This document shows positions 1-16,895 of a stretch of DNA of 46,125 nt, piece by piece (the stretch's first letter is position 1; each line of letters opens with the position of its first letter). This DNA comes from Escherichia coli. GTDB taxonomy: Bacteria > Pseudomonadota > Gammaproteobacteria > Enterobacterales > Enterobacteriaceae. Made by a program: the position numbers and the translations under genes. The stretch lies in the NCBI RefSeq assembly GCF_965641715.1, contig NZ_OZ282456.1, one strand, 5' to 3'. The notes under the pieces are model-generated. The model made no database searches. It was not told the origin of the DNA and saw nothing but the letters and a program-made list of their open reading frames with translations.

Positions 1-849
1 ATGGATAGACCAATGCAGTCTCTACGTTCAGCTTACGTTTGTAATTTGTCGCCGGAGTTCCAGCCTCCAAAGCACCATACGCACAAGCTGCCGCTGGTGT
101 TATCTGATGCTTTACAGCGCATTAATGGTCGTGATCTTACGTGTGAGGTTGCGTTCTACGTTAATCAACCGTCAGAGCGGAAGCGCCGGATAAACGAGCA
201 TCGTCGTCGGGCGATTAATGCTGTGATTGCTGCAATTTTGCACCATGTAAACATCATTTCTAAGCGGGTTCTGGCCAGTGCTGAGGCGTTGGCTGATTTT
301 TGCGGCCTGTCTACCGTATCCGAAGCTGGGAACAAGTCTATAACACGCTGTACAAGGGCGTTGTCGCAACTGAAAGCGTTAGGTTTTATTGATTATGAAC
401 GTCGCTGGGATCGGGTGAATAAACAGTATTGGCCAGCGAAAATAGAGATTCGTGATCAACTGCTGGAAACCGTTGGTATTACTGAACAAGCATGGAGACG
501 TGCGGTTAGCCAGAAACTTAATTACTTCAATGCGAAGAATAGCGAACGGCTTAAAAAAGCGATAACGGAGGCTGATTATAAGCGTATTGTTATTCAGGAG
601 CAGATGGAGAATGTATGGCGTCAGAGGAAGACGGCCAGAGAGATAAAGGCAAAACAGAAAGCAGCGGAGAGAGCTGCGCGTCTTGTTCGGGAAAAGGGAG
701 AGGCCGAACTTCGTCATCAAATCACTAGAGAGGTTAGCCAGGAATTTGCTGATGGCATGTATCCTGGAGCTGACCTTGCATATTTACGATCCCTCGTTGA
801 GCAGCGTTATAACAGGTTAAGAAAGACCTGGAAATCACTCCAGCATTAA
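1..849 (+). CDS. repA: Plasmid replication initiator RepA (IncFII RepA1-like)
   Basis: 282-aa ORF beginning at window position 1; central segment SITRCTRALSQLKALGFIDYERRWD resembles the IncFII RepA1 family as recalled; followed downstream by a DnaA box and AT-rich tract as in IncFII oriR. Confidence 0.7.
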   Translation: MDRPMQSLRSAYVCNLSPEFQPPKHHTHKLPLVLSDALQRINGRDLTCEVAFYVNQPSERKRRINEHRRRAINAVIAAILHHVNIISKRVLASAEALADFCGLSTVSEAGNKSITRCTRALSQLKALGFIDYERRWDRVNKQYWPAKIEIRDQLLETVGITEQAWRRAVSQKLNYFNAKNSERLKKAITEADYKRIVIQEQMENVWRQRKTAREIKAKQKAAERAARLVREKGEAELRHQITREVSQEFADGMYPGADLAYLRSLVEQRYNRLRKTWKSLQH

Positions 850-879
850 CCCACCTGAATGATGAATCCGGTTTTGCCG

Positions 880-1110
880 GAGGATTATCTACGTCGCAAT
901 AAAATAGCTGTTCAAAAAACAATCTAAATTAATTTTCTCTAAACCTGAACACAGTAAAAATATCGCCTTTACAGGCATCGGCTAATAAAGTTATCCACAG
1001 TTTTGATATGTATATGCAAATGGTTTTTTATAATAGATGCACTAAACAAATAAATGCAAAATCACTTTCTTTTATTAAGACTTTCTTTATTTAACTTACG
1101 CAGGCTTTGC
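880..1110. promoter_or_regulatory. Candidate replication origin (oriR-like): perfect DnaA box TTATCCACA at 991-999 plus AT-rich tract 1000-1100
   Basis: Exact DnaA-box consensus about 140 bp after the repA stop, followed by about 100 bp of AT-rich sequence; no ORF. Confidence 0.45.
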
Positions 1111-1492
1111 CTGTGAATATGTTCGCCCTTGCAGCGAGCTAAAGCTCGCGCCGGTTCGAGTCGCTACGCTCAAATATACCTCCCCCGGCACTTGCCGGAG
1201 GCATGGAGCAGCCTGATCATCCTTTTCGAAACGGCGCGTTTCGAACTATACAAAATCAATTTATATAAGGCCGAAATAAGGCCTACGGCCAGGCTTTGCA
1301 GGAGGAAGGGGCGAGCCTTATCAATAAACGTCGATAAATACGCACACAGTAGCCATCAGAACGCGATAAAACGTAAGAAACATCATTTCCTATTAGACAT
1401 AGAAAACTTGTCTTATACGCAATGTAGTAAATTTCTATTGCAACATAGGAAAAGATTTCCTACCATCGTAGATATAATAAATGGAGATGGTT

Positions 1493-1780
1493 ATGGATAA
1501 AGATACTGTTTTAAAAATGTTGAATCCGGCTTGTTTAAAAAAAGCGGATGAATGGGAATCTCCTACATGTGGAGAAGTTCGGGCAGTCATTGGCCTGACC
1601 GGAATGAGCGGCTCGCAGTTGGCCAAAAAACTAGGCTTAAAAGATAGTCGCAATGTTCGCAATTGGCAGATGTTAAAGGAGTCCACATCCAGATCCAGCA
1701 TTCCGTATGCAGCCTGGGCGCTGCTGTGTTACTTCGCTGGGTTAGGGTTAATCTTCATTGATAACAAAACAGATGTTTGA
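1493..1780 (+). CDS. Hypothetical protein with possible HTH and C-terminal hydrophobic segment
   Basis: ORF-track frame 1481-1780; ATG at 1493 preceded by GGAGATGG; no recognisable family. Confidence 0.3.
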   Translation: MDKDTVLKMLNPACLKKADEWESPTCGEVRAVIGLTGMSGSQLAKKLGLKDSRNVRNWQMLKESTSRSSIPYAAWALLCYFAGLGLIFIDNKTDV

Positions 1781-1803
1781 AACATGCAAATATGAGGTTT
1801 GTT

Positions 1804-2067
1804 ATGGAACTTGTACGCAAAACACGCAAAGAGTTCTTGGACCTGTATCGCATGGGAGCTTTCACTTGTGTTGTGGCTACCCAGGACGAAGTGACAAAAA
1901 GCTGGCGGCTTTTTGCTCTCAATAAAAAAGGGATTGCCGTTTTCATTGAAAAAGCCCGTGGTGGTATCCGCGAATGGGCGGGATTGAATTATGTGGCTGA
2001 TTTTTGCGCAGCTATGGGGATTCGTCGCTGGGAAGTCCATATGCCAGGAGTAAAGTCACAAAAATAG
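1804..2067 (+). CDS. Hypothetical protein
   Basis: ORF-track frame 1777-2067; ATG at 1804 preceded by GAGG; no recognisable family. Confidence 0.3.
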   Translation: MELVRKTRKEFLDLYRMGAFTCVVATQDEVTKSWRLFALNKKGIAVFIEKARGGIREWAGLNYVADFCAAMGIRRWEVHMPGVKSQK

Positions 2068-2256
2068 GGCTTTCGCGTCGAAAATGAGGCGAAACTGAAA
2101 ACGAGATTTCATTAACAAATAAGCAACATAAAAAACGGTGGAAAACGCCCAGGAAAACATGATCTTTTGAGCGGATTTTTTAGATCCGACAATGAACGGT
2201 GATCCGGTGGTGCCGATAACGTCCATTATGTTAAATAGCCCCGTTTTTCTTGAAAT

Positions 2257-2304
2257 TATAACTCACAGGTTATATAGTTAGTGATATAAACTACAGGTTA
2301 TAGG
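2257..2304 (+). promoter_or_regulatory. Tandem direct repeats (TATAACTCACAGGTTATATA / TATAAACTACAGGTTATAGG) upstream of the toxin-antitoxin operon; candidate autoregulatory operator
   Basis: Two about 20-bp direct repeats sharing the core ACAGGTTATA immediately 5' of the toxin start. Confidence 0.4.
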
Positions 2305-2311
2305 ATTGAGC

Positions 2312-2659
2312 ATGTGGACGGTACTTTTTAGCCAGCGATTTGACGACTGGCTAAATGAGCAAGAAGACGCTCTTCAGGAAAAGGTTTTGGCTGATTTGAA
2401 AAAGCTACAGGTTTACGGACCTGAGTTACCCAGGCCATATGCCGATACCGTAAAAGGTTCTCGGTACAAAAATATGAAAGAGCTTCGCGTTCAGTTTTCT
2501 GGCCGTCCGATAAGAGCCTTTTATGCGTTCGATCCGATTCGCCGGGCCATCGTTCTTTGTGCAGGAGACAAAAGTAACGATAAGCGGTTTTATGAAAAAC
2601 TGGTGCGTATAGCTGAGGATGAGTTTGCAGCACATCTGAACACACTGGAGAGCAAGTAA
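2312..2659 (+). CDS. Type II toxin, Gp49/HigB-like (RelE/ParE superfamily)
   Basis: Motifs FDDWL...GP.L.RPYADTVKGS...NMKELR...RAFYAFDP.RRAIVL.AGDKS...RFY match the Gp49-like toxin family pattern as recalled; ATG at 2312 with AGGA upstream (track uses TTG at 2306). Confidence 0.65.
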   Translation: MWTVLFSQRFDDWLNEQEDALQEKVLADLKKLQVYGPELPRPYADTVKGSRYKNMKELRVQFSGRPIRAFYAFDPIRRAIVLCAGDKSNDKRFYEKLVRIAEDEFAAHLNTLESK

Positions 2660-2958
2660 TGAGAACATTAGATGAGGCGATTGCCAGCCGTTCACCGGAA
2701 AGCCAGGCGCGAATTAAAGAAATGGCAGATGAGATGATTCTTGAGGTCGGCTTGCAGATGATGCGTGAAGAACTCCAGTTATCACAAAAACAGGTTGCTG
2801 AGGCGATGGGTATAAGCCAGCCAGCAGTAACAAAGCTGGAGCAGCGCGGAAATGATTTAAAGCTGGCGACATTAAAGCGTTACGTTGAAGCTATGGGAGG
2901 CAAATTAAGCCTGGATGTTGAGCTTCCCACAGGAAAACGAATAGCGTTTAACATCTGA
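2659..2958 (+). CDS. HTH (XRE-type) antitoxin / transcriptional regulator (HigA-like)
   Basis: Start overlaps the toxin stop (TAATG); HTH segment LSQKQVAEAMGISQPAVTKLE; toxin-upstream HigBA-like order. Confidence 0.6.
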   Translation: MRTLDEAIASRSPESQARIKEMADEMILEVGLQMMREELQLSQKQVAEAMGISQPAVTKLEQRGNDLKLATLKRYVEAMGGKLSLDVELPTGKRIAFNI

Positions 2959-2972
2959 TCAGAACGAATGAT

Positions 2973-3000
2973 AAGCCCCTGTTGCAAAGGGGCTTTTTTG
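2973..3000 (+). terminator. Rho-independent terminator
   Basis: Perfect 8-bp stem AAGCCCCT / AGGGGCTT with 7-nt loop followed by a T-run. Confidence 0.6.
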
Positions 3001-3003
3001 TGC

Positions 3004-3113
3004 TTATATAATTATAGATTTATATAAAAAGTGCTTTACAGGTGGGAAAAAATTTCCTATGGTTATACCCGAAACCGAGCGATACCCGCCCTGGTTAAAC
3101 CGGAGATAACCCG
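3004..3113 (+). promoter_or_regulatory. Copy A of a triplicated ~110-bp promoter-leader element (AT-rich box, -35 TTTACA at 3035-3040, 17-bp spacer, -10 TATGGT at 3058-3063, leader with GGAG)
   Basis: Near-identical to 12067-12175 and 16786-16895; each copy ends at an ATG. Confidence 0.55.
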
Positions 3114-3494
3114 ATGAGCATGATTAAAATCCGCAAAAACGCTTTCCTTAAAATTCAAACTATCCTGGCTGGTTCTGTTGGCGTGATTTGCCGTTCTTCC
3201 TCAAGCCGCATCGATGACTGCTACGATGATGAGTATCGTGTGTCCTCATGCGATGAGGCTTTAACCTGGCTGAAGGAGAATCAGGAACGTGCCCAGGTAT
3301 ATCTGGAAACAGAGAACGGCAATCAGATGCTGCGTATTAGCGGTCGTTATGGATTTGAAACTACATTCATGGCCTATTTTAATCAGGCTTACTTTGACAA
3401 GGAGTTGGCCTGGTACACTGATCGCATGAGCAAAAGCGAGCCAGCCCCGATTACACCGCCGAACAATAAACCATTTTTATTCCTCGTTAAGTAA
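3114..3494 (+). CDS. Hypothetical protein (driven by promoter-leader copy A)
   Basis: 126-aa ORF directly after the conserved leader and Shine-Dalgarno. Confidence 0.45.
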   Translation: MSMIKIRKNAFLKIQTILAGSVGVICRSSSSRIDDCYDDEYRVSSCDEALTWLKENQERAQVYLETENGNQMLRISGRYGFETTFMAYFNQAYFDKELAWYTDRMSKSEPAPITPPNNKPFLFLVK

Positions 3495-3502
3495 ACACAA
3501 TG

Positions 3503-3529
3503 CGCAAAGTGTCATTTTGACACTTTGCG
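3503..3529. promoter_or_regulatory. 27-bp perfect palindrome CGCAAAGTGTCA-TTT-TGACACTTTGCG; candidate operator
   Basis: 12-bp perfect inverted arms around a 3-bp centre, 29 bp upstream of an HTH regulator ATG; half-site copy AAAGTGTCATTTTGA at 12006-12020. Confidence 0.45.
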
Positions 3530-3557
3530 AGTGTTAATATTGTGCGAGGAGGGTGCT

Positions 3558-3830
3558 ATGACGGGTTATGAATTGAAATTATGGCGTCGTGGGATGAACT
3601 GGACGCAGGAGCGAGCCGCCGAAGAATTTGGGATATCGTTGGCTACATATAAGCGATATGAGAAGGGGGAGCCGCCGAGGGTCATTGAGATGGCCATTCG
3701 CGTTCTGTCGTTTGACGATATGGTGAAGGATCTTTCACACCTTGATAAAGATGCGATTCTGTTAAGGCTGCAAACCCTTGTATGGGAAAAGGTTAAAGTG
3801 TCGGCAGAATTGGAACAAGGGATCAAATGA
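3558..3830 (+). CDS. HTH (XRE-like) transcriptional regulator
   Basis: ATG at 3558 with GAGGAGGG upstream; HTH segment WTQERAAEEFGISLATYKRYEKGE; the track TTG start at 3525 lies inside the palindrome. Confidence 0.5.
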   Translation: MTGYELKLWRRGMNWTQERAAEEFGISLATYKRYEKGEPPRVIEMAIRVLSFDDMVKDLSHLDKDAILLRLQTLVWEKVKVSAELEQGIK

Positions 3831-3882
3831 TCCTTTACGGATCGTTTTATGGTGGTGTAATGTAAGCGCCAGAAAGACAAAA

Positions 3883-3905
3883 ACCGCCTTGCCGGGCGGT
3901 TTTCA
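3883..3905 (+). terminator. Rho-independent terminator (possibly bidirectional)
   Basis: ACCGCC-TTGCCG-GGCGGT hairpin followed by TTTT, preceded by an A-run. Confidence 0.45.
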
Positions 3906-4600
3906 GTCTGAAATTTAAATCTTGCTTGGTAGGCTGGATTTAAAAAGACACCTCTTGATTGGGGCGGCTTTCTTGCGTCTAAAGATAATCAAATCTTTTT
4001 GCGCCTGCAACCCCTTTTTTACTGGTGCCCATTTCAGACTCACGCTCGCGTCGTTGTCTTTGCCACTTCGTTGGGTTCGGTGTTTTTGGGCGAAGTGGCG
4101 CGCGGGTATGCGTACAAGGGGAAAGTGTGCTGACGCAAGCCAGGAACAGCGATCTAAACTAAGTCGAGTCTGAGAAAGGCAGGAGTGCGACAACTCGCCT
4201 GTGCTCTATGAGCAGAAGAAGGTATATCAGACGACCAATGGCATGATTGTGGGCCACAGGGCGCACACGGCGGCGAAGCATTGGAAACGATGTGGAGCTA
4301 TCTGGTGGCATGAGTTCCGGTACTCTATCTCGAGCTTTTTTTGATGCTTTTGAGAAGGGGCCGGAACTCCGGTAAAGGGCACCCTGTATGGGGGGAGGGG
4401 GGGTTGTGTCTGAAGGGTGGTTATCGGTTATGGTGGAATTATGATGCGTAGAAAAGCGAGTTTGCTGCAAGCTATTGGGTCCATTATTTCTTTGTTTCCG
4501 GCAGTTGATCATTTTCGTCATATGGCGACACGTTCCAGTATGGGCTTGGCGCGTGACGCTGACGCTATTCGAAAGGATTTTCAGAAAGTCTCTGGTGTTG

Positions 4601-4639: not shown

Positions 4640-5782
4640 TTATGGTCTGCTTTTCTGTGCCAGCTTATCAGCACATGTTTTTATCAGATCCTGTAGTGTC
4701 CTGGCTGGCAGGTTTGCATCCAGTACGCTGAGTATGCTGTTGTGATCTGCTTGGTCTACTACTTTGCCTGTCGGTGGTAGTAGCTTGAGCTGAGGATTCA
4801 GGTTTTCGTCAAAGCTGATAAGTGCTCTGGCGTTTCTGAGCAGATCAAGAAGTAAGGCTGATATCACATTTTCCTGAGTCATTGCTGGCAGATTTAGCGC
4901 CGCTTTGGTTTTCCCTGTTGCCTTGTCAAACTCCTTGATTAGTTCCTTCCTATAGTTCGGTTCCGTTAATAGCCGATTATGCTCTGTTGCCGCGCGGATA
5001 ATCGTTTTTTCCTGGTACAGTCGTTTAGCCAGATCGCGCTCGTACTGTGTTTTTAACACGCTGCTGATAGCGTTAAAGGCTTCAATGTAGGCTAGCTTGA
5101 TATCCTTCACGCCTGGACCGTCGATACTTTCCATGAGCAAGGTAAATCCGTCTTTTGTCATGCGATAGATTGTTATTTCGCGGTCGCTTCCTTCCAACGG
5201 TCGTTGCTCTTTAAAGAAATGACGCGCCGCAGCTGTGCGAGGAATGCGTAACGCATCGATGGCCATAACGATGGAATTGTTTGTGGTGCTGAATGCCTGG
5301 GCTACATCGGCTGAGGTTGTGAGTGGCTCGTTGTTGCACACCTTAACGTAATACATTGGTTTGGCGTTGAGCGTATCGACAACCTCACGAGCATTGTTTG
5401 GCGAGACGGTAACGGTCGCGGCCGTTTGCGCGTTCTGGTTGAAATAGCAGTCTTCCAGTTTTTCGAACACATCCCAAGCCTGATCGGTTTCGAGCATTTT
5501 GGCGTGACGGGCTGCTCCGTGTTCGGTCCAGAGAATTAGGGAGCGGGCATTTTTACCAACTAACCCGATTGTTTCAGGTCTGTTCTTGAACTCGCGTAAT
5601 TCGTTTTTTTCAATTTTAAAGTAATGCTTTCCGGCTATGAATCGCGTCGTGTTGTTCAGAAAGTTATCAGAAATGTTTTTGATTTTTGTTCCGTATAACT
5701 GCGCCAGAAGTTCAGTTGTAATAACGGGGATCTGGTTATGCAAGATAGGCTGTAGGGTGTTAACGGTCGGAAGCGTTTTCAT
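4640..5782 (-). CDS. Phage antirepressor (Ant-like)
   Basis: 380-aa ORF; N-terminal region with ILWTEHGAARHAKMLETDQAWDVFEKLEDCYF resembles antirepressor N-terminal domains and the C-terminal part resembles KilA-C-type domains, by recall. Confidence 0.55.
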   Translation of the reverse strand: MKTLPTVNTLQPILHNQIPVITTELLAQLYGTKIKNISDNFLNNTTRFIAGKHYFKIEKNELREFKNRPETIGLVGKNARSLILWTEHGAARHAKMLETDQAWDVFEKLEDCYFNQNAQTAATVTVSPNNAREVVDTLNAKPMYYVKVCNNEPLTTSADVAQAFSTTNNSIVMAIDALRIPRTAAARHFFKEQRPLEGSDREITIYRMTKDGFTLLMESIDGPGVKDIKLAYIEAFNAISSVLKTQYERDLAKRLYQEKTIIRAATEHNRLLTEPNYRKELIKEFDKATGKTKAALNLPAMTQENVISALLLDLLRNARALISFDENLNPQLKLLPPTGKVVDQADHNSILSVLDANLPARTLQDLIKTCADKLAQKSRP

Positions 5783-5970
5783 TTTGCACCTCCCATAACT
5801 ACTTTGGTTACGAGGGAGATTTTTGCGTCAGAAACAGCGTTATCGTTGCTGGCGATGCGCATAGCTTCGCGCTCGATTATTTCAGCCAGGCGGAATTTAT
5901 CGGCGTATGAGGCTTTCTTGAGAAGGATCTTTACGAGGTTGACGTAATAGTCATGGGGTAAGTTTGTCAT
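5779..5970 (-). CDS. Small hypothetical protein co-transcribed with the antirepressor
   Basis: Internal ATG at 5970 has GGAG 8 nt upstream; stop overlaps the antirepressor start; the track start at 6006 has no SD. Confidence 0.4.
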   Translation of the reverse strand: MTNLPHDYYVNLVKILLKKASYADKFRLAEIIEREAMRIASNDNAVSDAKISLVTKVVMGGAK

Positions 5971-6130
5971 TGTGATATCTCCAATATATGGAACTATCAC
6001 CGCCATTCGAGGCTAATCAAATGGTGGTGAGCCGTACAGGGTTAGCCTTACCGGACACAATGACGAACCGGCGCGGATTTCTCCGCCCCTGTACGACCCA
6101 CCATAATTTGGGCGTAACAGTGCTCTACGC

Positions 6131-6157
6131 ATAAAAAAACCGCTAACGCGGTATGCG
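6131..6157 (-). terminator. Candidate intrinsic terminator (minus strand) in the antirepressor leader
   Basis: ACCGC-TAAC-GCGGT hairpin with a 7-A run on the plus strand (T7 on the minus strand). Confidence 0.35.
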
Positions 6158-6298
6158 CCATCGTGTTATTCAGGAGGCTAATCCCGACCGTAGATTTTGC
6201 TACGGCTCGGAAAGTGTCCACCAATGGCGCATTCATGTCAATACGGCGGGATTTTAACAGAGACAACCACATAGCGTGGGTTTATTGGTAGGCAGAAA

Positions 6299-6333
6299 CA
6301 AAAAAACCGCCCTATTGAGGACGGTTCTTTTGT
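6299..6333 (-). terminator. Intrinsic terminator (minus strand, possibly bidirectional) in the antirepressor leader
   Basis: 8-bp stem ACCGCCCT/AGGACGGT with one G-U pair, loop ATTG, flanked by an A-run on one side and TCTTTTGTG on the other. Confidence 0.5.
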
Positions 6334-6715
6334 GCTGATCGGATTCGCGGTCCTTTCAGCATAACGTCGTTGTGTAAACAACCACGCAAGCACAAGCGGC
6401 GTATCTATTCTTACTCAACTGAGGTGAATAGTCCACTATTCATATAAAGAAATTTAGTTCCTTAGTTCATGCAGAATGAAGTTTTTTAACTTCTTCGGAT
6501 GTAATTACATGTAATAAAAGCAATTGTTATTCCTTCATTATGAAGGCGAGGACGTGTAATATGGCTTGGGGCCTTTTCGCCGATTCGCACCCGGGCACCG
6601 ACTTTAAGGAAAGGATCATCCACTTGCCGTACACGCAAGCACAAGCGGAGTGCTTGCTCTCGCGTCATTTTCGTCGGTGGAGATGCCGTGAAACGGCCTG
6701 TAAGGGCCACACAAT

Positions 6716-6836
6716 GAAAAAATACTGTATGTGTATTTTTATCGTTGTTACTGGAGCTTTGTTTACGCCACATGGGGAGGGTTGGAAGATTACTGATAAC
6801 GCTCTGAATGTGACGATAAACATTAGCAGCAAGTAG
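6716..6836 (+). CDS. Candidate small hydrophobic peptide (40 aa)
   Basis: MKKYCMCIFIVVTGALFTPHGEGWKITDNALNVTINISSK; AAGGG upstream of the ATG; terminator immediately downstream. Confidence 0.2.
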
Positions 6837-6841
6837 CGATT

Positions 6842-6864
6842 AGGCCCCTTCGGGGGCCTTTTTT
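6842..6864 (+). terminator. Rho-independent terminator
   Basis: AGGCCCC-TTCG-GGGGCCT hairpin followed by TTTTTT. Confidence 0.55.
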
Positions 6865-8222: not shown

Positions 8223-8345
8223 GTGTTTGGTTATATAATTCTATAAATCTATATTTATAGAACGAGGTAAGCATAACCAACTTTTTGGCGGATGGAAAGC
8301 GTTTTATATAATTATATAAATCTATAATCATATAAGCGGGCGTTA
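8223..8345. repeat. AT-rich repeat array upstream of parA; candidate partition site/operator
   Basis: Two copies of TTATATAATT(C/A)TATAAATCTATA at 8231-8260 and 8304-8335. Confidence 0.4.
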
Positions 8346-8357
8346 GCCCGCTTGCAG

Positions 8358-8732
8358 TCAGAGGTCAGCTATCGTTGATATCAGTTGATTTGCTAGCTGT
8401 CGCTGTTTACGTGAGAGGGTTAGAGCAGCTTCTGAGCGGTCGCTAAGAGGAGTGTTTTCATCAAGAATCATGAGGCATACAGAAATAATAGCCCTGTTAT
8501 ATGCCATCAATGGCTGGCACAGCTTCGATACCGCTGGCACATCGTATTGCAAGGCCGTTTTGAGGCAGACTTTTTGTTCTGATGCCAGATGAAGGATAGA
8601 TTCTATCCAGTCGATATCTTTCTCATTATCAATGATTTGGCATAACATACACTCAATCGCTATGTTCAACGCTTGGATTTCGATTCCAGCAGTGATCAGA
8701 GTTTCGTTTTTATTGGCTGTATGTAATTCCAT
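8358..8732 (-). CDS. Hypothetical protein downstream of the repressor
   Basis: 124-aa ORF; no recognisable family. Confidence 0.4.
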   Translation of the reverse strand: MELHTANKNETLITAGIEIQALNIAIECMLCQIIDNEKDIDWIESILHLASEQKVCLKTALQYDVPAVSKLCQPLMAYNRAIISVCLMILDENTPLSDRSEAALTLSRKQRQLANQLISTIADL

Positions 8733-12066: not shown

Positions 12067-12175
12067 ATATATAATTATAGATTTATATAAAAAGTGCTTT
12101 ACAGGTGGGAAAAAATTTCCTAAGGTTATACCCGAAACCGAGCGATACCCGCCCTGGTTAAACCGGAGAAATCTG
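12067..12175 (+). promoter_or_regulatory. Copy B of the triplicated promoter-leader element
   Basis: About 97 percent identical to 3004-3113 and 16786-16895 over about 100 bp; one base shorter before the ATG. Confidence 0.55.
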
Positions 12176-13243: not shown

Positions 13244-13320
13244 CAGTAAGCCTACGGCGGGATATCTCCCGCCGTATATAGAATTATATATTTATATAAA
13301 TGTATAAGGACGCCTCGACA

Positions 13321-15812: not shown

Positions 15813-15888
15813 GGCCCCTTAGCTCAGTGGTTAGAGCAGGCGACTCATAATCGCACGGTCATCGGTTCAAATCCGGTAGGGGCCACCA
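15813..15888 (+). tRNA. tRNA with CAT anticodon (Met by anticodon; sequence resembles the lysidine-type tRNA-Ile2)
   Basis: Manual cloverleaf: 7-bp acceptor stem GGCCCCT/AGGGGCC, D-arm GCTC-AGTGGTTA-GAGC, anticodon loop CTCATAA, T-loop GGTTCAAATCC, 3' CCA encoded. Confidence 0.8.
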
Positions 15889-16785: not shown

Positions 16786-16895
16786 TTATATAATTATAGA
16801 TTTATATAAAAAGTGCTTTACAGGTGGGAAAAAATTTCCTAAGGTTATACCCGAAACCGAGCGATACCCGCCCTGGTTAAACCGGAGATAACCCG
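16786..16895 (+). promoter_or_regulatory. Copy C of the triplicated promoter-leader element
   Basis: Near-identical to copies A and B; ends at the ATG of 16896. Confidence 0.55.

Follow-up and report, generated by a model that had tools for sequence, protein, structure and literature searches.

The 46,125-nt stretch of DNA analysed here (hereafter the window) represents a 46-kb Escherichia coli phage-plasmid and carries, close to its replication module, an ordinary HigBA-type (Gp49-family) toxin-antitoxin addiction cassette (Table 1). A first-pass annotation of the bare sequence had proposed a Gp49/HigB-like toxin ahead of an XRE-type helix-turn-helix antitoxin, with overlapping stop and start codons, and this description is borne out: both families are recovered by profile search (see below) and, according to the open reading frame list, the end of higB and the start of higA share a single base (TAATG, at 2659). 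An internal GGAG sits 8 nt 5′ of the higA ATG and, together with this overlap, suggests that translation of the two genes is coupled. The toxin-first (reverse) gene order, with the antitoxin following immediately, recurs in 75 of 80 homologous loci, and the same number have an adjacent antitoxin of ~99 amino acids. The functional unit slightly exceeds positions 2257–2958, taking in the −35 hexamer on one side and the terminator on the other. Two long antisense open reading frames (minus strand, 2328–2645 and 2426–2695) lie wholly within the conserved coding region, and an Rfam scan found no RNA family within 2059–3003.

Table 1: Features of the higBA locus and the adjoining Xer site, in window coordinates.
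Feature	Position	Strand	Details
Xer accessory sequences, cer/psi-type (probable)	2059..2208	+	non-coding, ~150 bp, common to other plasmids; outside the toxin-antitoxin operon
Xer core site	2209..2236	+	GGTGCCGATAA-CGTCCA-TTATGTTAAAT: XerC arm, 6-bp centre, XerD arm identical to that of dif
Sigma-70 promoter (predicted)	2250..2278	+	−35 TTGAAA 2250–2255, 17-nt spacer, −10 TATAGT 2273–2278; 10/12 consensus
Operator O1 (putative)	2257..2274	.	perfect palindrome TATAAC-TCACAG-GTTATA; fills promoter spacer, overlaps −10 hexamer
Operator O2 (putative)	2285..2302	.	TATAAA-CTACAG-GTTATA, one arm mismatch; over predicted transcript start
higB-like toxin gene	2312..2659	+	ATG 2312, TAA 2657–2659, 115 aa, Gp49/COG4679 branch of RelE/ParE superfamily
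higA-like antitoxin gene	2659..2958	+	ATG 2659, 99 aa, XRE helix-turn-helix
Intrinsic terminator (predicted)	2973..3003	+	stem AAGCCCCU/AGGGGCUU then U-run; −15.5 kcal/mol, z = −2.3

The annotated position beside the replication module is roughly right, but the end of repA is at 849, and between it and the higBA promoter come the origin region, two small open reading frames and an Xer site. None of the 61 E. coli plasmids that match at least 80% of window positions 1–4200 lacks the pair. The region is also identical in the virion-derived Yersinia phages vB_YpM_39/41/44, on which our literature searches found nothing; a tblastn search of the phage collection returned seven records only.

The toxin matches Pfam family Gp49 (PF05973) with an E-value of 5.4e-23 (81 bits against a cutoff of 23.9), a domain found in all of the best 120 of 1062 toxin homologues (E ≤ 0.001), and also matches the PHROG ‘toxin’, which the PHROGs database files under ‘moron/host takeover’. 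Neither the toxin itself nor a 21-sequence profile gave a meaningful match to a solved structure when searched against PDB sequences, so the fold was assigned from an AlphaFold2 model (pLDDT 94.8, pTM 0.87) searched with Foldseek. The model has the N-terminal helices followed by an antiparallel beta-sheet of the RelE-type fold, and its best PDB matches are RelE, Vibrio cholerae HigB2, Streptococcus pneumoniae HigB and YoeB, with ParE ranking lower. The invariant residues K56, R59, R68, K87/K91 and Y94 are our guess at the catalytic set. The antitoxin consists of ~30 N-terminal residues followed by an Xre/Cro-type helix-turn-helix of the COG5606/COG1396 kind (HTH_3, E = 3.9e-10), with the recognition helix at approximately residues 53–61 (SQPAVTKLE); its closest solved relatives are Mycobacterium tuberculosis HigA3 (6lty) and HigA2 (7ewc) and S. 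pneumoniae HigA (6af3). Pfam, PHROG, fold and HigA relatives, which include the profile search that the first-pass annotation had called for, place both proteins in toxin-antitoxin families and not among regulators of other kinds.

Upstream of higB, that annotation had noted two direct repeats of about 20 bp with a shared element. Two repeats are indeed there, TATAACTCACAGGTTATA (2257–2274) and TATAAACTACAGGTTATA (2285–2302), alike at 15 of 18 positions, with starts 28 bp apart and ACAGGTTATA in common, but they are 18 bp long, and each is itself an inverted repeat, so that the pair is better described as two palindromic sites than as simple direct repeats. The shared element occurs in only these two copies in 46 kb (0.05 expected), as does the pattern TATAAC-N6-GTTATA with at most one mismatch (0.15 expected). 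O2 abuts the Shine–Dalgarno sequence AGGA (2302–2305), and homologues keep it at the same distance from the start codon (about −27). A third palindrome between the two operators, TATATAGTTAGTGATATA (2271–2288), was considered as an operator and rejected: it is not conserved in pPCP1 or other loci and we regard it as a by-product of the two TATA-ended sites.

Comparison of homologous loci agrees with the suggestion that the repeats are operators. At least one palindrome of the form.ATA-NN-N6-NN-TAT. lies within 110 nt upstream in 77 of the 80 loci, a conservation that owes something to common ancestry, against 2.4 of 80 for shuffled sequences and ~1% for other 110-nt windows of the same loci. 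Half of the loci (40/80) have two palindromes, approximately at −55 and −29 relative to the start codon, and promoter geometry is retained, with TTG 5–7 nt before O1 in 40 of 44 homologous loci and a TAnnnT hexamer beginning at nucleotide 17 of O1. Bases 4–6 of the half-site vary symmetrically on both arms, tracking antitoxin residue 59, which is lysine in the window: Q accompanies AAG (34 loci), K accompanies AAC in the window and pPCP1 and, in a QPT context, AGC, while A accompanies AGA, and E or G accompanies AGG. The antitoxin of a Klebsiella plasmid is 90% identical to that of the window, K59Q being the sole change in its recognition helix, and both operators of that plasmid read AAG/CTT where the window has AAC/GTT. 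Overlap with the promoter, conservation and co-variation together provide strong sequence evidence that O1 and O2 act as autoregulatory HigA operators. They also make explicit an operator grammar for this HigA subfamily—an 18-bp palindrome, TATA-NN-N6-NN-TATA, that is usually paired over the promoter—and a directly testable specificity code in which one recognition-helix residue tracks the half-site bases.

These results also bear on whether the pair might be non-toxic, with the helix-turn-helix protein serving as a regulator of phage or plasmid genes and the Gp49 protein merely modulating it. The antitoxin does score weakly against generic repressor families, but the rest of the 46-kb element holds no further copy of its operator motif, so there would be no HigA regulon beyond its own promoter, while the toxin keeps the RelE/HigB fold and the invariant residues of its family, among them G64, on which the toxicity of its IncC homologue depends. 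We consider such a regulatory role highly improbable.

The pair already carries a type II toxin-antitoxin label in GenBank and two toxins 55% identical to its own have been tested experimentally, so this is no new kind of system. The closest tested homologue, HigBA (tad-ata) of IncC (IncA/C2) plasmids, is likewise plasmid-borne with the toxin gene first; its toxin and antitoxin are 55% and 46% identical to those of the window. The IncC toxin is toxic, is neutralised by its antitoxin, cleaves mRNA in a ribosome-dependent manner and, with its partner, stabilises pACYC184, while the substitution G64V abolishes activity (Qi, Kamruzzaman & Iredell, 2021; PMC8265657). The window toxin keeps G64, as do at least 90% of 55 homologues. 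The IncC promoter, like that of the window, has two TATA-NN-N6-NN-TATA palindromes, but these read TATAGG/CCTATA and overlap, starting 16 bp apart rather than 28 bp, and E takes the place of K59 in the recognition helix. The IncC genes are separated by a 4-nt gap where those of the window overlap, a scan of 2.5 kb on either side of the IncC locus found no Xer site, and the host replicon is a conjugative plasmid rather than a phage-plasmid.

Acinetobacter baumannii HigBA2 from pAB120 also combines a GP49-domain toxin with an XRE antitoxin, and there HigA represses the promoter with HigB as co-repressor (Armalyte et al., 2018; PMC5906591). The A. baumannii plasmid homologue compared here, which may differ from the pAB120 allele, is 55% (toxin) and 62% (antitoxin) identical to the window pair; one operator only, TATAGA-N6-TCTATA near −31, takes the place of two, its genes overlap by 8 nt rather than 1 nt and a pdif site lies ~500 bp upstream on the opposite strand. 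From these homologues, at 55% toxin identity, it can be expected that higB is toxic and neutralised by higA (PMC8265657; PMC5906591). The cleavage reported for IncC HigB, taken with a RelE-like fold bearing invariant basic residues and a tyrosine, suggests that the toxin is probably a ribosome-dependent mRNA endonuclease.

More distant systems share the architecture. The gp49/gp48 pair of N15, likewise a phage-plasmid, belongs to the same toxin family (PF05973 is named after N15 gp49), with the toxin first and an XRE helix-turn-helix antitoxin, and is reported to stabilise plasmids (Dziewit et al., 2007, as cited in PMC2701414 and PMC5906591). BLASTP gave no alignment between the window toxin and N15 gp49 and only profile comparison joins them (hhalign probability 71%, 26% identity over 81 columns), so N15 is treated as a distant relative; between the antitoxins, identity is 35% and confined to the helix-turn-helix. 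Tad-Ata of Paracoccus pAMI2 likewise has a toxin of the same Pfam family, encoded first, and an XRE helix-turn-helix antitoxin. S. pneumoniae HigBA (6af3/6af4) and V. cholerae HigBA2 (5jaa) are among the best structural matches of the toxin model (TM 0.46–0.71), but these systems, like those of M. tuberculosis, are chromosomal, with toxins only 14–18% identical to that of the window. Proteus vulgaris Rts1 HigBA, with a classical HigB, has operators O1 and O2 over its promoter (PMC12266136); it resembles the window pair in its toxin-first order and two inverted-repeat operators overlapping the promoter and works as a plasmid addiction system, with no sequence similarity detectable between the two pairs.

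The neighbouring Xer site adds to the functional context. Sites of the cer/psi type have a core of 28–30 bp, with a 6–8-bp centre, and, on the XerC side, some 150–200 bp of accessory sequence to which PepA binds together with ArgR or ArcA. The core in the window has this layout, departs from the dif arms at two positions, sits 14 bp ahead of the higBA promoter and is the only match to a dif-type pattern (≤3 mismatches) in 46 kb, where 0.01 would be expected. Window positions 2059–2260 are 88% identical to a segment of 24–31-kb E. coli plasmids, with or without a toxin-antitoxin pair alongside, and 2125–2244 are 81% identical to positions 6403–6522 of Yersinia pestis pPCP1. A search for ARG boxes found none near the site, matches across the whole window being at chance level. 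We read 2059–2236 as an Xer (cer/dif-like) plasmid dimer-resolution site directly beside higBA, its accessory part being probable.

With RepA and the origin, ParA and this adjoining site, higBA forms a maintenance cluster, and the positional argument for post-segregational killing—which the first-pass annotation had drawn from proximity to repA—is stronger because a resolution site adjoins the operon. Killing of cells that lose the plasmid prophage is the best-supported role, and we think it very probable that the locus is a self-contained GP49-domain HigBA (tad-ata-like) type II operon working in the following way. One promoter would drive higB and then higA, coupled through TAATG, with transcription stopping at the terminator. 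HigA, probably as a dimer, alone or with HigB, would bind both operators and shut the operon off, occupancy of O1 covering the promoter spacer and −10 hexamer and that of O2 the transcript start beside the ribosome-binding site. HigA would also neutralise the RelE-fold HigB. Should a daughter cell lose the phage-plasmid, the less stable HigA would not be replaced, HigB would be freed to halt translation, probably by cutting mRNA on the ribosome, and plasmid-free cells would be removed. The present analysis itself establishes the genes, the families and folds of their products, the layout of promoter, operators and terminator, and the conservation and co-variation of the operators; for the toxic and RNase activities of HigB, for autorepression, for the instability of the antitoxin and for stabilisation of the plasmid, the scheme draws on characterised homologues. 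A host that already carries a near-identical HigA, as Y. pestis does on pPCP1, would neutralise the killing. Taken alone, the finding is of little consequence, adding one more plasmid addiction cassette with close characterised relatives.

On a phage-plasmid, such a pair could serve defence instead of, or besides, addiction. Its main role might then be anti-phage defence or superinfection exclusion: an infecting phage that shuts off host transcription or degrades the antitoxin would activate the toxin, infection would be aborted, and lysogen and phage-plasmid would be protected. The module is borne by a temperate phage, its region is identical in the vB_YpM phages, its toxin falls under ‘moron/host takeover’, PADLOC reports weak similarities to NsnC (6e-7) and HTH_VI, and toxin-antitoxin systems in general are reported in phage defence. 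However, the pair fits no recognised PADLOC defence system, it lies among plasmid maintenance functions rather than in a defence island and its closest tested homologue acts as an addiction module. The two roles are compatible, but we judge defence unlikely to be the main one.

Addiction may also have a mobile side. Homology of the window with pPCP1 and the Klebsiella plasmid runs from the Xer core to the higA stop codon, and between the sister plasmids pSCU-171-2 and pEc631_3 the sole difference is the cassette 3′ of the Xer site. In pPCP1 and pE600029_8 the homologous module has an Xer site on either side, and Acinetobacter higBA homologues lie in modules between pdif sites (PMC13141974). 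The recurrence of this link in the phage-plasmid, in Klebsiella and E. coli plasmids and in pPCP1 suggests a route of exchange among enterobacterial replicons. It is conceivable, at a little under even chances, that higBA is the addiction part of an Xer-linked unit (accessory sequences, core and higBA) moved by XerCD among enterobacterial plasmids and phage-plasmids; this would be an enterobacterial counterpart of the Acinetobacter dif modules, described in a 2026 paper as unique to that genus. The same observations, with the pPCP1 module lying between hybrid Xer sites, would also suit a selfish cassette that spreads by Xer recombination and persists through its own addiction, with little or no benefit to the phage-plasmid. 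Yet the window has a single Xer site, not the bracketing pair of an Acinetobacter-type module, and hence holds no excisable module, and every one of the 61 near-full-length family members has the pair, which points to stable retention. Addiction would not be contradicted by a selfish origin, but the selfish reading seems improbable as the main account of the locus.

In Y. pestis pPCP1 the Xer-site/higBA unit is joined to the virulence-associated gene pla and lies between two hybrid Xer sites, in which cer and the window-type site are combined reciprocally. An uninterrupted cer is found in a related E. coli plasmid, a window-type accessory sequence lies just inside the pPCP1 module, next to site B, and the published limits of the ‘pla-depleted’ region in post-Black-Death strains (NC_003132.1: 6,428–8,530) coincide with the last base of each site’s central region. 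On these four features, the unit with pla resembles a 2.1-kb circle that has inserted itself at the cer site of a ColE1-type plasmid. Our literature searches found no toxin-antitoxin system or Xer site described for pPCP1, and the Xer observation may already be published; no pla-minus pPCP1 record occurs in the plasmid collection. No specific mechanism for pla loss was offered by Susat et al. (2020). If the circle reading is true, pla depletion would be XerCD excision, removing the plasmid’s toxin-antitoxin genes as well, and HigBA addiction could explain why mixed populations of pla-positive and pla-negative plasmids persist, as opposed to complete loss of pla. The link would thus provide a concrete, testable mechanism, and a possible role for a toxin-antitoxin system, in a virulence-attenuating change seen in ancient and modern Y. 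pestis; the predicted pla-minus joint reads GGTGCGTACAA-CGGGAG-TTATGGTAAAT.

Both genes of the toxin–antitoxin operon described in the first-pass annotation, a Gp49/HigB-like toxin followed by an XRE-type HTH antitoxin, are present as open reading frames; the toxin stop and antitoxin start overlap by one base (TAATG), with a GGAG 8 nt ahead of the antitoxin ATG. Profile searches agreed with this assignment, matching the toxin to Pfam Gp49 (PF05973, E = 5e-23) and the antitoxin to HTH_3 (E = 4e-10). A promoter scan gave a sole strong candidate promoter, and a predicted terminator hairpin (AAGCCCCU/AGGGGCUU, then a U-run) begins fifteen bases 3′ of the antitoxin stop (folding energy −15.5 kcal/mol, z = −2.3). 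With a single promoter and a downstream hairpin, the operon is therefore a self-contained transcription unit of ~750 bp, inside which there was no Rfam match.

Coordinates of features in the window and in related plasmids
Feature	Position	Strand	Remarks
RepA, IncFII-type	1-849		NCBIfam RepA_IncFII_LM, 8.8e-69
DnaA box	~990-998		TTATCCACA, perfect; AT-rich stretch downstream of repA
GGAAA-N3-TTTCC palindromes	1448-1460, 3045-3057, 12108-12120, 16827-16839		0.07 expected
Two-gene cassette	1493-2064		95-aa weak-HTH protein, 87-aa protein
Xer core	2209-2236		GGTGCCGATAA-CGTCCA-TTATGTTAAAT
Candidate promoter	2250-2278		TTGAAA 2250-2255, 17-nt spacer, TATAGT 2273-2278
O1 repeat	2257-2274		TATAACTCACAGGTTATA
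O2 repeat	2285-2302		TATAAACTACAGGTTATA
Shine-Dalgarno AGGA	2302-2305		
Toxin ORF (higB)	ATG 2312 to TAA 2657-2659	+	115 aa
Antitoxin ORF (higA)	ATG 2659 to 2958	+	99 aa
97-bp promoter-plus-leader unit	3004-3100, 12068-12163, 16786-16882		three copies, ~99% identical
Partial copies of 97-bp unit	8312-8337, 13277-13300		
Two-gene cassette	3114-3827		126-aa protein, 90-aa HTH protein
ORF6N/Rha antirepressor-like gene	4640-5782	minus	
C4 antisense RNA	6020-6108	minus	
isrK	6133-6206	minus	
ryfA	6567-6864	plus	
tRNA-Met (CAT)	15813-15888		
Xer sites, Y. pestis CO92 pPCP1 record (L090)	6412-6439, about 8511-8541		
Xer sites, pPCP1 locus (L004)	2986-3014, 5086-5113		
higBA-pla module, pE600029_8 (L095)	about 7306 to 990		across record start
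Cassette region, pSCU-171-2 (L089)	3200-3900		
Cassette region, pEc631_3 (L088)	3200-4270		

PHROGs families label the two proteins ‘toxin’ and ‘HTH DNA binding protein’. Toxin relatives in a large protein database number >1,000; PF05973 is present in 120/120 of the best matches listed, and those with names among them are RelE/ParE-family or addiction-module toxins. N15 gp49, the namesake of the Pfam family, is only a distant relative (BLASTP without alignment, hhalign probability 71%). As PDB sequence searches with the toxin, as single sequence or profile, found nothing, its structure was modelled from 55 homologues (pLDDT 94.8, pTM 0.87). All of the best Foldseek matches were mRNA interferases of the RelE type: RelE from T. 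thermophilus, archaea, E. coli and M. tuberculosis, V. cholerae HigB2, S. pneumoniae HigB (TM up to 0.71) and YoeB; the gyrase poison ParE was placed lower. Among solved proteins, the antitoxin is closest in sequence to HigA3 and HigA2 of M. tuberculosis and HigA of S. pneumoniae. The analysis shows anatomy, family and fold, together with the operator conservation described below, and a pair of non-toxic regulators is a scarcely credible reading.

The tandem direct repeats reported upstream of the toxin gene stand as two copies, alike at 15/18 positions, starting 28 bp apart and sharing ACAGGTTATA, which is confined to them within the window (0.05 expected); the description needs refining in that each copy is itself an inverted repeat, TATAAC-N6-GTTATA. 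With one mismatch allowed, this palindrome occurs in the window solely at these two sites (0.15 expected), leaving the antitoxin without another obvious target on the element. Given the promoter position, O1 fills the spacer and extends two bases into the −10 hexamer; O2 covers the predicted start of transcription, and its end reaches the Shine-Dalgarno sequence.

Palindromes of the form.ATA-NN-N6-NN-TAT., with one arm mismatch or none, were sought in the 110 nt preceding the toxin start at 80 loci, each from a different bacterial species and encoding a toxin relative of 54-98% identity. At least one operator-type palindrome was found in 77/80 loci and two in 40/80, counts that are not independent events because the loci are related; dinucleotide shuffles gave at least one site in 2.4/80 and two in 0.06/80, and other 110-nt windows of the same loci held a site in ~1%. 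Relative to the start codon the palindromes are located near −55 and −29, with a usual spacing of 25-29 bp. TTG sits 5-7 nt ahead of the upstream palindrome, and TAnnnT starts from its base 17, in 40 of the 44 loci with an upstream site, so the promoter-over-operator geometry is conserved.

Variation in the palindrome arms is symmetric (AAC/GTT, AAG/CTT, AGA/TCT, AGC/GCT, AGG/CCT, AAA/TTT, AAT/ATT) and tracks the antitoxin recognition-helix residue aligned with K59. Arm bases 4-6 are AAG with Q (34 loci), AAC with K (window and pPCP1), AGA with A (QPSLSAIE, Acinetobacter), AGC with K in QPTLAKIE (5 loci) and AGG with E or G (IncC and one other). The clearest comparison is between the window and a Klebsiella plasmid: the antitoxins are 90% identical, K59Q is the sole recognition-helix change, and both Klebsiella operators have AAG/CTT where the window has AAC/GTT. 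A dimeric HTH repressor would be expected to show just such a coupling of symmetric arm changes to a helix residue, and conservation and arm co-variation together mark the repeats as predicted operators for the antitoxin.

Operon DNA was matched in the plasmid collection (CHARACTERISED relatives) to IncC plasmids, small Acinetobacter plasmids and Y. pestis pPCP1, the last at 95% nucleotide identity. Protein identities to the window toxin and antitoxin, respectively, are 99% and 94% for pPCP1, 67% and 90% for the Klebsiella plasmid, 55% and 62% for an A. baumannii plasmid, and 55% and 46% for IncC. The IncC pair has been shown to be a genuine HigBA: its toxin stops growth, reduces AAA-rich mRNAs and loses activity through G64V, and its operon keeps pACYC184 stable for 70 generations (PMC8265657); G64 is conserved in the window toxin. 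In the A. baumannii pAB120 pair, HigA autorepresses with HigB as co-repressor, and the same study groups GP49-domain toxins, among them M. tuberculosis HigB2/HigB3 and the Tad toxins, as a branch of the RelE superfamily with reversed gene order (PMC5906591). From relatives of 55% identity we infer that the window toxin is toxic and an RNase, that its antitoxin is unstable and that the pair stabilises its replicon.

The pair is most probably an addiction module of the type II HigBA class, with autorepression at O1 and O2. HigA would repress its own promoter through both sites, and HigB, RelE-like and probably a ribosome-dependent mRNase, would be set free upon loss of the plasmid-prophage. Phage defence is unlikely to be the main role, and a defence function may exist alongside addiction. 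The earlier finding is confirmed and correctly interpreted, yet ordinary: this is a further instance of a well-known kind of toxin–antitoxin system, already labelled so in the database record, and further value comes from the operator code and from the linkage to a Xer site, with its implication for pPCP1.

The 46,125-bp window is a phage-plasmid, the complete circular plasmid pRHB38-C13_5 (CP055628.1) of E. coli from pig faeces, rotated and reverse-complemented, so that subtracting a record coordinate from 25329 gives the window coordinate. Besides ParA, it encodes a virion module with a contractile tail, an invertase for the tail fibre, holins and lysis functions. Near-identical elements include a 48.5-kb plasmid of E. 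coli ATCC 25922 and three phages, vB_YpM_39/41/44, isolated using Y. pestis EV76, in which the toxin gene already carries the name higB2. The DnaA box downstream of repA probably belongs to the replication origin.

The Xer core lies 14 bases upstream of the −35 hexamer, and its XerD arm is identical to that of E. coli dif. It is the window's one Xer core (0.01 expected), and the cer/dif-like site at 2059-2236 is probably the dimer-resolution site of the element; an ARG box was looked for near it and none was found. The conserved, non-coding 150 bp (2059-2208), a putative accessory sequence, plus core are 88% identical to a segment of 24-31-kb E. coli plasmids, where it occurs with or without the adjoining toxin–antitoxin genes. 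The sister E. coli plasmids pSCU-171-2 and pEc631_3 are 99.8% identical until just past the Xer core and then carry different cassettes on a backbone identical elsewhere: higBA in the former; an HTH gene, a DUF5397 gene and a ‘virulence factor’ gene in the latter, preceded by a TATAGT-N6-GTTATA palindrome and with a remnant of the higA 3′ end retained. Homology among the window, the Klebsiella plasmid and pPCP1 runs from Xer core to antitoxin stop. This linkage and cassette exchange place the operon in a maintenance cluster (repA, origin, Xer site, toxin–antitoxin) and make it an exchangeable unit. The pair is kept in 61/61 E. coli plasmids covering at least 80% of window 1-4200, and a purely selfish cassette appears highly improbable.

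In pPCP1, the higBA homologue and pla are bracketed by two directly repeated hybrid Xer cores. Site A is GGTGCGTACAA-(A)nTTGCCG-TTATGTTAAAT, flanked on its XerC side by sequence common to thousands of ColE1-type plasmids and on its XerD side by the higBA promoter; site B is GGTACTGATAA-CGGGAG-TTATGGTAAAT, its XerC-side flank being 81% identical to window 2125-2208. In an E. coli plasmid from this replicon cluster, the two pPCP1 flanks are joined across an intact GGTGCGTACAA-TGAGACG-TTATGGTAAAT. Given the hybrid sites and this uninterrupted relative, A and B look like reciprocal products of circle integration, as if a circle carrying a window-type Xer site, higBA and pla had entered a ColE1-type cer site. 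The same higBA-pla module occurs in E. coli pE600029_8 (8,419 bp, a ColE1-type colicin plasmid from human stool) between GGTGCGTACAA-TATTGCCG-TTATGTTAAAT and GGTACCGATAA-CGGGAG-TTATGGTAAAT, and homology to pPCP1 continues past both sites.

XerC-type exchange is expected at the last base of the Xer central region. The pla-depleted region of post-Black-Death strains is NC_003132.1:6,428-8,530 (Susat et al. 2020, PMC7471286), limits that coincide, in sites B and A respectively, with the final base of the central region; the ‘transcriptional regulator’ and ‘hypothetical protein’ deleted with pla (PMC7471286) are the HigA and HigB homologues. A Bacillota assembly (Amphibacillus jilinensis Y1 Scaffold15, 9,631 bp) also contains higBA of the pPCP1 type, its promoter and Xer sites identical; the scaffold is pPCP1-sized and most likely Y. 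pestis plasmid DNA contaminating that assembly.

Small two-gene cassettes flank the operon on either side; their four proteins fall into PHROG families without an assigned function and matched no known toxin–antitoxin or defence family. The 97-bp units reach right to the ATG of three different operons. Their promoter is TTTACA-17-TATGGT, with a GGAAAAAATTTCC palindrome spanning the spacer, and their conserved 5′ leader (~50 nt) folds only weakly (z = −1.7). The fourth GGAAA-N3-TTTCC copy sits upstream of ORF 1493-1777, placing the Xer-site/toxin–antitoxin unit between two operons that share the putative operator of another regulator. The phage-plasmid also carries a tRNA-Met gene, and window 4640-6864, where the antirepressor-like gene adjoins C4, isrK and ryfA, looks like a P1 immI-like immunity region.
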